Virus record (IMG/VR): IMGVR_UViG_2872147552_000001
Direction: 5' to 3' (one strand)
From: a virus
Taxonomy: Duplodnaviria; Heunggongvirae; Uroviricota; Caudoviricetes
DNA: 64,000 bases
Part shown: piece after piece, positions 62,796-64,000 of the stretch
How the letters are laid out: every line of letters begins with the position of its first letter
How positions within the stretch are numbered: position 1 is the first letter of the stretch
Notes under the pieces: generated by a model
What the model saw: the letters and a program-made list of their open reading frames with translations, nothing else
Databases searched by the model: none
What the model was told of the DNA's origin: nothing
Made by a program: the position numbers and the translations under genes

Positions 62796-62942
62796 CGCTG
62801 AAAAAAAGTGTTGCTAGGATGTTAGCAAGCTATGGTTAAGAACGTCTGCCGTAATTGTCTATCACAGCGTTGAGCGGTCTGGTTTATGTTAGCGGAGTCT
62901 TAATCTGGGTGATTAAAAGGCCAAACCGCTCAACGCTGTGTC

Positions 62943-63029
62943 TGGCGGAGAGTAATGGAATCGAACCATCATCGCTTGCGCAATGGGACGGTTTTCAAGA
63001 CCGCTTGAGCACCATGCTCCCTACTCTCC
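62943..63029 (-). tRNA. tRNA-Ser (anticodon TGA), type II
   Basis: Acceptor GGAGAGT/ACTCTCC, anticodon loop cTTGAAAa, long variable arm, GGTTCGATTCC T-loop, encoded CCA. Confidence 0.5.
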
Positions 63030-63349
63030 AGCTATTGTGATGGTCGGTGCTGAACTCCGACACAGGGTTGTAGCAAGCCCCGCAAAGCGCGCACTACTGT
63101 AGTTGCGGCACATCAGCCTGTGCATTCATCACAACGGTAAGATCACTACCTTTCGACCAGTCATTGTGCACATGAACGACGATTAACCGTAATGATCTTA
63201 TCGTTGTGTTGTGAAGCCAGATGCTTATCTTCTGGTTGCTTCAAAGAGCTGCACTTCCTCACAACGGTAAGAGCACTGGTCTGACTCTATCGATTTACGG
63301 GCTTGTGGGTCAGTATCGCCGATTCGCCCAATGCTCTTACCTGTTGTGT

Positions 63350-63425
63350 TGGTGCCGGTTAACGGGATCGAACCGCTGACATCCTGCTTACAAGGCAGGC
63401 GCTCTACCAACTGAGCTAAACCGGC
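63350..63425 (-). tRNA. tRNA-Thr (anticodon TGT)
   Basis: GCCGGTTTAGCTCAGTTGGTAGAGC ... loop CTTGTAA ... GGTTCGATCC ... CACCA. Confidence 0.7.
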
Positions 63426-63429
63426 AATT

Positions 63430-63516
63430 TGGTGGGGAGTGATGGAGTCGAACCACCCGAGTCGCAATGACAGTAGATTTACAGTCTACCCCGCTGCCCC
63501 TACGGACTAACTCCCC
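63430..63516 (-). tRNA. tRNA-Tyr (anticodon GTA), long variable arm
   Basis: Anticodon stem-loop GTAGA-CTGTAAA-TCTAC; GGTTCGACTCC T-loop; CCA end. Confidence 0.7.
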
Positions 63517-63521
63517 TAAAT

Positions 63522-63596
63522 TGGCGATGGTGGGTGGATTCGAACCACCGACCAGTTGGTTAACAGCCAACTGCTCTACCGCTGAGCTACACCATC
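63522..63596 (-). tRNA. tRNA-Asn (anticodon GTT)
   Basis: Anticodon stem-loop GTTGG-CTGTTAA-CCAAC; GGTTCGAATCC T-loop; CCA end. Confidence 0.7.
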
Positions 63597-64000
63597 AATT
63601 CAGCACTGCCAGTATTTATTACTCAACAGTGCCAATCGCGACGGTTTAGTTTCTGCCAGGAAACGCACCGCTACTTGCACTTTTCGTTAGTGCCAGACGC
63701 TTTCGACTTCGCTCAATAGTAGAAGGCAAAATCTTTAAGTAGATGATGTTTCTGAGGACAGCACCTACTTTGTAATTTATACAATGTGATGTATGGAATC
63801 ATTTGTTGTGAAAACAGGCACCAATGGCAACAGTGGTTAAACCTACACAACAATCCTGTCTTCACAACGTTGAGGCCACTACTCCGATTGAATGTTTACC
63901 CAACATGTTACATATCAACGCTCGCCGGTATCTCTGTGAATAGAACCTTAGAATTGATAAAAATGTAATGGCCTCAACGTTGTGTGCTGGCTAACCATAC

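Follow-up and report, generated by a model that had tools for sequence, protein, structure and literature searches.

Four long hairpins beside the tRNA genes of a tailed-virus genome belong to a hairpin family that includes lambda LPR2

Helices of about 20 bp are substrates of E. coli RNase III, and stems of this kind, such as the rRNA operon stalks and the T7 early intercistronic sites, stand in polycistronic, largely untranslated transcripts and enclose a variable payload. Y RNAs are often encoded near tRNAs in phages; in the bacterial Y RNA YrlA, the two ends of the molecule pair into a conserved closing stem, on which sits a variable module, a tRNA mimic. Integron attC sites are imperfect hairpins of 60-130 nt with conservation at the AAC...GTT base, an extra-helical base and a bias toward one strand. 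STnc100 and PasD are known prophage small RNAs (10.64898/2026.05.13.724894). The described RNA nearest to the present subject is LPR2 of phage lambda. In the accessible part of the study reporting it (10.1101/2024.10.31.621285), LPR2 appears as one defined band of ~63 nt that is enriched in Hfq immunoprecipitates and arises from the late operon, chiefly during the lytic cycle. Its chimeras in RNA interaction by ligation and sequencing (RIL-seq) are with PreS and fliC only, with the follow-up deferred to future work; that part of the study gives the band and the RIL-seq partners and describes no hairpin, family or tRNA linkage. A 2025 review states that the function of LPR2 has not been explored (PMC12197685). 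The subject here is a set of four long hairpins, E1 to E4, at 62863-63984 of a 64,000-nucleotide stretch (the window) of the IMG/VR virus record IMGVR_UViG_2872147552_000001 (Caudoviricetes). These hairpins are members of a family with one experimentally detected, uncharacterised representative, lambda LPR2. They are most likely small-RNA modules in the tRNA transcript and not integrase binding sites, because hairpins of the same family are also found in lambda, P1 and many enterobacterial phages, and the lambda copy yields LPR2.

The hairpins alternate with four tRNA genes, which were called by ARAGORN and Rfam:

62863-62940, minus strand: hairpin E1; arms 62863-62882 and 62921-62940, 20 nt, 95% complementary (20-bp stem), 38-nt loop; 2 nt past the CCA end of tRNA-Ser
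62943-63029, minus strand: tRNA-Ser(UGA)
63130-63208 (core), minus strand: hairpin E2; arms 63127-63149 and 63189-63211, 23 nt, 87% complementary, 39-nt loop; between tRNA-Thr and tRNA-Ser
63260-63348, minus strand: hairpin E3; about 20 bp with one bulged base, 48-nt loop; 1 nt past the CCA end of tRNA-Thr
63350-63425, minus strand: tRNA-Thr(UGU)
63430-63516, minus strand: tRNA-Tyr(GUA)
63522-63596, minus strand: tRNA-Asn(GUU)
63863-63984, minus strand: hairpin E4; arms 63863-63882 and 63965-63984, 20 nt, 95% complementary, 82-nt loop; upstream of tRNA-Asn and the tRNA cluster

An earlier note made from the sequence had described four pairs of inverted repeats with arms of 15-18 nt. The positions stand as placed there, and the arms are longer, about 19-23 nt. 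ARAGORN and an inverted-repeat search recovered the arrangement of the pairs downstream of, between and upstream of the tRNA genes as the note had described it. The four inverted repeats are confirmed as real and lie far beyond chance. Allowing up to one mismatch, the window holds 11 copies of the 12-mer motif CACARCGKTRAG, seven of them hairpin arms; 2.05 copies are expected, and none of 100 shuffles gave as many as 11. Exact CACAAC or GTTGTG is found nine times in 62850-64000, for which the frequency in the remainder of the window predicts 0.57 (Poisson P = 1e-8). All four hairpins share the base CACAAC...GTTGTG and have stems of 19-23 bp. E3 can be taken as the archetype, 5'-CACAAC-A(bulge)-GGUAAGAGCAUUGG ... 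CCAGUGCUCUUACCGUUGUG-3', and the 82-nt insert of E4 contains two sub-hairpins. RNA structure prediction, which the note had proposed as a check, gave z-scores against dinucleotide shuffles of -10.7 for E1 (-41.2 kcal/mol), -4.5 for E2, -5.7 for E3 and -6.3 for E4, with none of 200 shuffles as good for any of them. The geometry is that of an RNase III substrate: the stems span 19-23 bp, about two turns of double-stranded RNA, and none has more than one mismatch or bulge and one G.U.

Family membership was assessed with a covariance model, R1, which was built from 34 aligned hairpins of other phages, none of them from the window, with a fixed stem of 19 pairs. Run on the 64-kb window with all filters off, R1 finds exactly E1-E4, and the next match scores 11 bits. 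The minus strand is preferred in every case: 60.8 bits (E = 7e-13) against 38.3 bits on the plus strand for E3, 46.2 (E = 3e-9) against 36.3 for E2, 38.8 (E = 2e-7) against 29.4 for E4, and 37.9 (E = 3e-7) against 27.3 for E1. The structure of the hairpins, their strand and their membership in the family are thereby established.

The alignment itself carries the marks of a maintained stem. Paired cells make up 91.8% of it, compared with 76.3% in shuffles (none of 500 reached the observed value) and 35-56% when the partners are slid, and 13 of the 19 stem pairs show changes on both sides. It keeps three irregularities. After the sixth pair there is a bulged A, four positions above this a frequent U.U opposition (17 of 33), and three pairs below the stem top a U.G wobble, which is kept in 21 of 33 sequences. 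In all four window stems the wobble is G.U on the minus strand and C.A on the plus strand, and four of the five non-Watson-Crick positions in these stems are G.U on the minus strand. E1 and E4 differ from E3 at no fewer than seven stem positions, all of them compensated. Under symmetric scoring, in a sample picked only by the downstream motif, G.U exceeds A.C by 89 to 47 (P = 4e-4), and the bulged-A position accounts for 29 of the 47 A.C. Because the pairs covary, the U.G wobble and the bulged A are conserved and G.U exceeds A.C, selection on the transcribed strand is concluded.

The lambda copy of the family occupies 44,787-44,862 (76 nt), between the tR' terminator, which precedes it by a few nucleotides, and gene S, and scores 59.8 bits with R1. 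The LPR2 northern probe P844 (supplement of 10.1101/2024.10.31.621285) maps to lambda 44,816-44,850, within the hairpin, where it covers the insert and the 3' arm. Since the probe maps inside the hairpin, the lambda member of the family is a real, discrete and stable RNA, LPR2. The difference between a hairpin of 76 nt and a product of ~63 nt would, by arithmetic, fit removal of the 6-bp base on both sides; the RIL-seq tables were examined for LPR2 ends and held nothing usable. LPR2 and E1-E4 are homologous: they share the R1 model, the stem design, the strand logic and a position in an untranslated stretch of an operon. Unlike the window hairpins, LPR2 is present as a single copy after tR' and not beside tRNAs, and its insert is unrelated in sequence to the inserts of E1-E4. 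A discrete small RNA and its co-purification with Hfq are known for lambda only, whereas E1-E4 are known here from sequence. The only annotated feature overlapping the lambda copy is the hypothetical orf-64 (362-556 of the lambda locus L347), which spans tR' into the hairpin.

The family is broadly distributed among enterobacterial viruses. It is carried by lambda, the lambdoid HK629, P1, P7, D6, SSU5, the tRNA array of a Phapecoctavirus and the capsid-tail gap of a Nonanavirus. A search with the arm pattern returned at least 120 viral contigs, and so did a separate search with the downstream motif. In the genome-wide pattern scan, 87 of 122 matches were chance occurrences in unrelated taxa and several others were lambda contamination. 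After a pairing filter only the matches in Enterobacterales passed as genuine (Serratia, Klebsiella, Pectobacterium, Pantoea, Rahnella, Kluyvera and Citrobacter among them). One variant matches at least 695 of 5,426 complete E. coli genomes; among the matches listed, the Prokaryotic Genome Annotation Pipeline (PGAP) places no feature on 24 of 25 copies and a hypothetical protein over one. No family hairpin was found when the K-12 prophages DLP12 and Qin were scanned. Lambda-identical hairpins with lambda flanks also occur in assemblies assigned to Pseudomonas, Psychrobacter, Oceanobacillus, Algoriphagus, Segatella and others, where several lie on contigs that are very short; most likely they are contamination with lambda control DNA.

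The genomic context of the copies agrees with the strand preference of the model. All 35 copies within 400 nt of a tRNA lie on the tRNA strand; 20 copies begin 1-2 nt past the CCA end of tRNA-Thr, and four finish flush with a tRNA 5' end. Intergenic position is the rule (142 of 146 copies), and the long open reading frames (ORFs) on either side are co-oriented with the copies at about 6:1 (95:18 upstream, 103:14 downstream). The earlier proposal of a long-loop hairpin in the tRNA precursor is thus supported by the minus-strand preference of R1, by the G.U pairs on that strand, by the uniform co-orientation and by the often flush joints with tRNA ends. E1-E4 would accordingly be transcribed together with the tRNAs from the minus strand.

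Comparison with close relatives shows that the hairpins behave as modules. Two phage-plasmids, Escherichia phage CMS-2020a and Cyrano, share 95-97% identity with this region of the window, and parts of the region match P1, P7, D6 and SSU5-type phages. E1 is conserved in both Cyrano and CMS-2020a. The SSU5 homologue of E4 retains 72% sequence identity, with its arms still paired. Cyrano has tRNA-Ser, tRNA-Thr and tRNA-Asn packed together and lacks E2, E3 and tRNA-Tyr; its junction Thr-CCA-A-CACAAT-T-Ser replaces E3, E2 and the two spacers of the window. In one CMS-2020a record E2 abuts tRNA-Thr and E3 is missing, and in a second record two different hairpins occupy that place. The breakpoints of module gain and loss fall in the motif (A/G)TTGTG. 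Non-conservation in close relatives had been named as evidence that would count against the repeats; the hairpins are in fact kept well beyond close relatives. The P1 counterpart belongs to the ban operon, which C1 controls; it is found between trnT and tciA, and its only annotations are upl and plp, on the opposite strand. These two frames (2376-2945 of the P1 locus L004) run against the ban-operon transcript, over hairpin and spacer modules. Like orf-64, upl and plp are probably not genes, and several annotated small ORFs over hairpin regions are probably spurious. The relatives also carry a further hairpin of 22-23 bp, ATGACGTAACAGGATGGGCGGTC ... GACCGCCCATTCTGTTACTTCAT, upstream of E4 and just past the right end of the window (5196-5284 of L002, 4953-5041 of L001 and 2770-2856 of L010, three loci of relatives). 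It has the AACAGG core of the family, is cut off by the window edge and, judged by this core, is probably a fifth family member.

In contrast to the stem, the inserts are hypervariable. The 157 unique hairpins fall into 84 insert sequence clusters, and insert length ranges from 7 nt to well over 100 nt (38-82 nt in the window). A modular design is in this way established for the family. Some insert types are nevertheless shared: the E2 type of the window, AUCGUCGU...CAAGGUCUGCUCGAA, also occurs in lambdoid prophages, a Phapecoctavirus and a Nonanavirus. Its copies share blocks that do not vary and pairs that change in compensation, and in one case the stem around it is completely different. 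A family stem in D6 and related P1-like contigs encloses the module that in lambda comes after the hairpin. A T-arm-like stem-loop (5 bp plus UUCRANN) is present in 15 of 113 inserts (~13%) against 0.57 expected, an enrichment of about 26-fold; no canonical T-arm is seen in the four inserts of the window. Degenerate tRNA genes were considered as an explanation and set aside: ARAGORN calls none in the hairpins, and only a minority of the inserts are tRNA-like.

None of this corresponds to a catalogued RNA. With Rfam 15 at permissive thresholds, only tRNA reaches the gathering score in 62000-64000, the hairpins drawing chance-level miRNA and snoRNA matches, and the homologues in 10 related loci gave nothing on the hairpins. 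A full-text literature search for the arm sequence in DNA and RNA forms returned no papers, and a keyword search for phage tRNA-flanking hairpins and conserved-stem RNAs returned nothing relevant. The family, its structure, its breadth and the design of a constant handle with a changing payload thus appear undescribed in Rfam 15 and the searchable literature. YrlA (RF02553) was considered for the YrlA-like order of the T-arm inserts and was rejected, as its model matches no hairpin at permissive thresholds and gives weak matches only on true tRNAs. YrlA resembles the family in its general plan, the tRNA mimic having its counterpart in the T-arm-like ~13% of inserts. The two differ in stem sequence, which in the family bears no relation to that of the Ro-binding helix; an Rsr gene was not seen, and the inserts of the window lack a canonical T-arm. 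STnc100 (RF02076) and PasD occur in the same prophage RNA islands as the family hairpins. STnc100 matches of 33-40 bits, below the gathering score of 47, are found in P1 and D6 on the module that comes directly after a family hairpin, and this sub-threshold module starts with the motif GGUGAAUGC, which is also found after E2. These matches fall on the neighbouring module type and not on the hairpins, and STnc100 has no match in 62000-64000.

Taken together, E1-E4 are probably small RNAs of the LPR2 family that are excised from the tRNA precursor, with the stem serving as a scaffold for processing and stability. Each is closed by a stem of about 19 bp with CACAAC/GUUGUG at its base; a bulged A or a mismatch interrupts the stem after 6 bp, a U.G wobble stands three pairs below its top, and the apical insert, 38-82 nt here, can vary freely. 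Release of the hairpin from the polycistronic precursor might fall in part to the enzymes that trim the adjoining tRNA ends. The remainder could be a cut or trimming in the lower stem, for which RNase III is the obvious candidate given a helix of about 20 bp; in lambda, loss of the 6-bp base would turn the 76-nt hairpin into the ~63-nt product. This processing role is plausible but unproven, the formation of a ~63-nt RNA from the 76-nt lambda hairpin being the case at hand. The constant stem would then be the scaffold and the variable apical domain the working part, which may act by base-pairing or sponging in some members and by mimicry of the tRNA elbow in others. The conserved arms could serve in addition as homology joints through which phages swap RNA modules.

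Several observations weigh against this interpretation. An excess of G.U over A.C (that is, of G.T) would also arise from a single folded DNA strand; the RNA reading is preferred because the transcript context and the RNA product of lambda favour it as well. E1 and E4 form a divergent subtype, which scores 38 bits and has no bulged A. A promoter scan of 62650-64000 found none, which bears on whether E4 shares the tRNA transcript. Trimming of the lower stem of LPR2 is arithmetic and not mapped ends, and co-purification with Hfq together with two partners does not prove a function in trans. The hairpins are also dispensable, as is clear from Cyrano (no E2, E3 or tRNA-Tyr) and from the CMS-2020a record without E3.

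The main rival to the excised small RNA is a purely cis-acting punctuation, which is possible but rather doubtful. The hairpins would be processing or insulating stems of the RNase III type that separate the tRNAs and RNA modules, free the tRNA 3' ends and keep an untranslated transcript folded, while the inserts would be spacers and the excised hairpin a by-product. The near-perfect helices of about 20 bp belong to the length class of E. coli RNase III, the stem is conserved where the insert is not, and the dispensability of the hairpins in relatives agrees with such a role. Because the hairpins start 1-2 nt after the CCA end, a 3' exonuclease alone could not mature the tRNA and an endonucleolytic cut is needed; in lambdoid phages the hairpin stands a few nucleotides past tR' at the head of the late mRNA. 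The window resembles the known RNase III stems in that its helices bracket a variable payload, and they abut stable RNAs. It differs from them in that the payload is 38-82 nt, compared with the rRNA of the rRNA stalks, and the sequence of the family stem is conserved across hundreds of phages, which is usually not the case at RNase III sites. Cleavage by RNase III is documented at no member of the family. Insert families are kept across unrelated phage types with invariant blocks and compensatory pairs, and T-arm mimics are enriched about 26-fold, neither of which is expected of spacers. The lambda hairpin is not degraded but builds up as a defined RNA associated with Hfq (10.1101/2024.10.31.621285). 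The case against punctuation consists of the conservation of insert families, the excess of T-arms and this build-up of LPR2.

Readings at the level of DNA or of transcription are far less probable. According to one of them, the repeats are recombination sites, either arm-type or dyad sites of the neighbouring integrase, as the earlier note had suggested, or folded single-strand sites of the attC kind at the borders of tRNA and RNA 'cassettes'. The attC-like layout is indeed present (an AAC...GTT base, an extra-helical base, a variable centre, 65-130 nt in total and one favoured strand), the breakpoints between relatives lie in (A/G)TTGTG, and a tyrosine recombinase gene is about 950 nt away. 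This integrase (ORF 60815-61918) is an ordinary tyrosine recombinase (PF00589) separated from the hairpins by two genes; against NCBIfam it shows only a weak generic integrase domain (33.9 bits, cut-off 434), and integron-integrase models do not match it. Lambda, P1, DE16 and PJ16 carry the hairpin without the integrase of the window, and no linked integrase accompanies it at the lambda late leader, in the P1 ban operon or in the tRNA arrays of lytic phages. The core of E1-E4 and of the family consensus, nCACAAC ... GTTGTGn, departs from RYYYAAC ... GTTRRRY at one position on each side, with A at a Y and T at an R, and no credible ORFs lie between the hairpins as cassettes would have them. The stems covary and keep no fixed binding sequence, the flush tRNA joints, the T-loop motifs in the inserts and the lambda RNA product point to RNA, and ordinary homologous recombination between conserved arms explains the breakpoints equally well. 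The suggestion of integrase sites thus fails, and recombination sites of either kind are very unlikely, because the hairpins are widespread without an integrase, the arms covary and the attC consensus is missed. Selfish elements of the kind of miniature inverted-repeat transposable elements (MITEs), spreading through phage genomes with the hairpin RNA as an incidental product, would account for conserved terminal inverted repeats around a variable interior, for presence or absence among close relatives and for the very wide spread over unrelated phage groups. They are most improbable, however: no target-site duplication was seen in the copy flanks checked, the window copies are confined to the 1.1-kb RNA island at 62863-63984 instead of being dispersed, their orientation is strictly fixed relative to transcription, and covarying arms, a conserved wobble and bulge and an excess of G.U over A.C would not be produced by transposase-bound ends. 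To our knowledge there is no cognate transposase for the hairpins. Hardly more credible is an anti-termination element resembling the Nus-factor boxA, which would shield the untranslated RNA island from Rho. It was considered on account of UGCUCUUU in the 3' arm and was set aside as the principal explanation. The 3' arm CAGUGCUCUUU/A resembles boxA of the rrn leader (CACUGCUCUUUAACAA) and of lambda nut (CGCUCUUA) and is followed by the G/U-rich GUUGUGGUG; GCUCUU recurs in the 3' arm even in divergent subfamilies, such as CGCUCUUUUUGAUUGUG, and the hairpins lie in long untranslated stretches of operons. The motif is, however, locked in a stable helix, while NusB/NusE bind single-stranded boxA; it is missing from E1 and E4, which have CGCUCAAC and GGCCUCAAC; its positions change by compensatory pairs, so that the pairing is kept and not the boxA sequence; and the late operon of lambda is already anti-terminated by Q.

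A more far-reaching extension of the small-RNA interpretation, put forward only tentatively, is that enterobacterial phages possess a modular 'handle plus payload' RNA system that corresponds in function to the Y RNAs. In such a system the constant stem might be the docking and processing handle for Hfq, RNase III or a host factor still to be found, and the swappable apical domain would supply a specificity particular to each phage. Regulatory RNAs may be sponged in this way, as the LPR2-PreS chimeras hint, and the mimics of the tRNA elbow could decoy host enzymes or defences directed at tRNA. The arms would then act as joints for exchange of RNA cassettes among lambda, P1, rV5-like and 9NA-like viruses. 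In all of these proposals, the nuclease and any function in trans are assigned to E1-E4 by inference.

The hairpin is unannotated even in lambda and P1, the best-studied phages, though it is widespread, and it is absent from Rfam. The isolated northern band of LPR2 becomes part of a large, alignable RNA family with a defined structure and an unusual design, in which a constant stem carries inserts of many clusters. Genetic handles for the function are at hand, as stem and insert can be addressed separately at lambda 44,787-44,862. The variable spacing of tRNA genes in P1-like and SSU5-like phage-plasmids finds its explanation in the gain and loss of RNA modules.

Other modules lie between and around the hairpins of the window:

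62766-62789, minus strand: terminator candidate found by eye, GGGGCUUCGGCCCC followed by UUUUUU, about 75 nt after E1
63030-63129, minus strand: second module type between E2 and tRNA-Ser, beginning with AUGAAUGCACAGGCUGAUGUGC directly after E2
63209-63259, minus strand: short module between E3 and E2, AGGAAGUGCAGCUCUUUGAAGCAACCAGAAGAUAAGCAUCUGGCUUCACAA, bracketed by GUUGUG...CACAAC
63805-63868, minus strand: 14-bp hairpin with the reverse bracket order GUUGUG...CACAAC, sharing 6 nt with the 3' arm of E4

The module at 63030-63129 ends with GUCGGAGUUCAGCACCGAC-CAUCACAAUAGCU, flush with the 5' end of tRNA-Ser, and has an outer helix GUGAUGA/UCAUCAC. It is ~95% identical to the P1 ban-operon stretch annotated upl/plp, and its 5' motif follows family hairpins in at least 120 viral contigs. 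Its structure is not established, because its fold is no better than that of shuffles (z = 0.2). The short module at 63209-63259 also follows family hairpins in P1 and PJ16, with the bracket bases changed, and the 14-bp hairpin is present in SSU5 and CMS-2020a as well. Judged from its sequence, GGGGCUUCGGCCCC-UUUUUU is likely the intrinsic terminator of the RNA cluster; a terminator consensus scan of 62650-64000 listed nothing, the candidate found by eye included. The region as a whole looks like an 'RNA island' of alternating modules in CACAAC...GUUGUG or GUUGUG...CACAAC brackets with interspersed tRNAs. In the Qin prophage of K-12, a GGUGAAUGCGGCUGAGCGCACGCGG ... CACCUGGAGGCACCAGGCACUGCAUCAC module of the type that follows the hairpins stands without a family hairpin between dicF and dicB, at 1,649,451-1,649,589 (19452-19590 of locus L225).

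Short frames resembling the tag of transfer-messenger RNA (tmRNA) were seen upstream of the tRNAs and hairpins in P1 (~3441-3500 of L004, minus strand), where GCA AAC GAU GAU CUG AUG AUG GUA GCG GCC UAA encodes ANDDLMMVAA. In PJ16 a comparable frame (~2388-2440 of L009, minus strand) encodes ANEERFLMAA and is followed by two stop codons. ARAGORN calls no tmRNA at these frames in P1 and PJ16; weak Rfam tmRNA matches (24-28 bits) overlap both of them and also occur at a corresponding D6 locus.

Within the window, the exact 15-mer AATGATTCCATACAT forms a near-perfect 16-bp palindrome at 62017-62049, in the intergenic space that precedes the integrase gene. An inverted copy at 63789-63803, ~190 nt upstream of tRNA-Asn, is kept in Cyrano and CMS-2020a; AATGATTCCATACAT could be an operator common to the integrase promoter and the RNA cluster. 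Beyond the downstream end of this cluster, the minus strand carries genes for Phage_gp49_66 (PF13876, 62371-62721) and a glutaredoxin (PF00462, 62129-62374), past which lie the integrase and a divergent helix-turn-helix protein.

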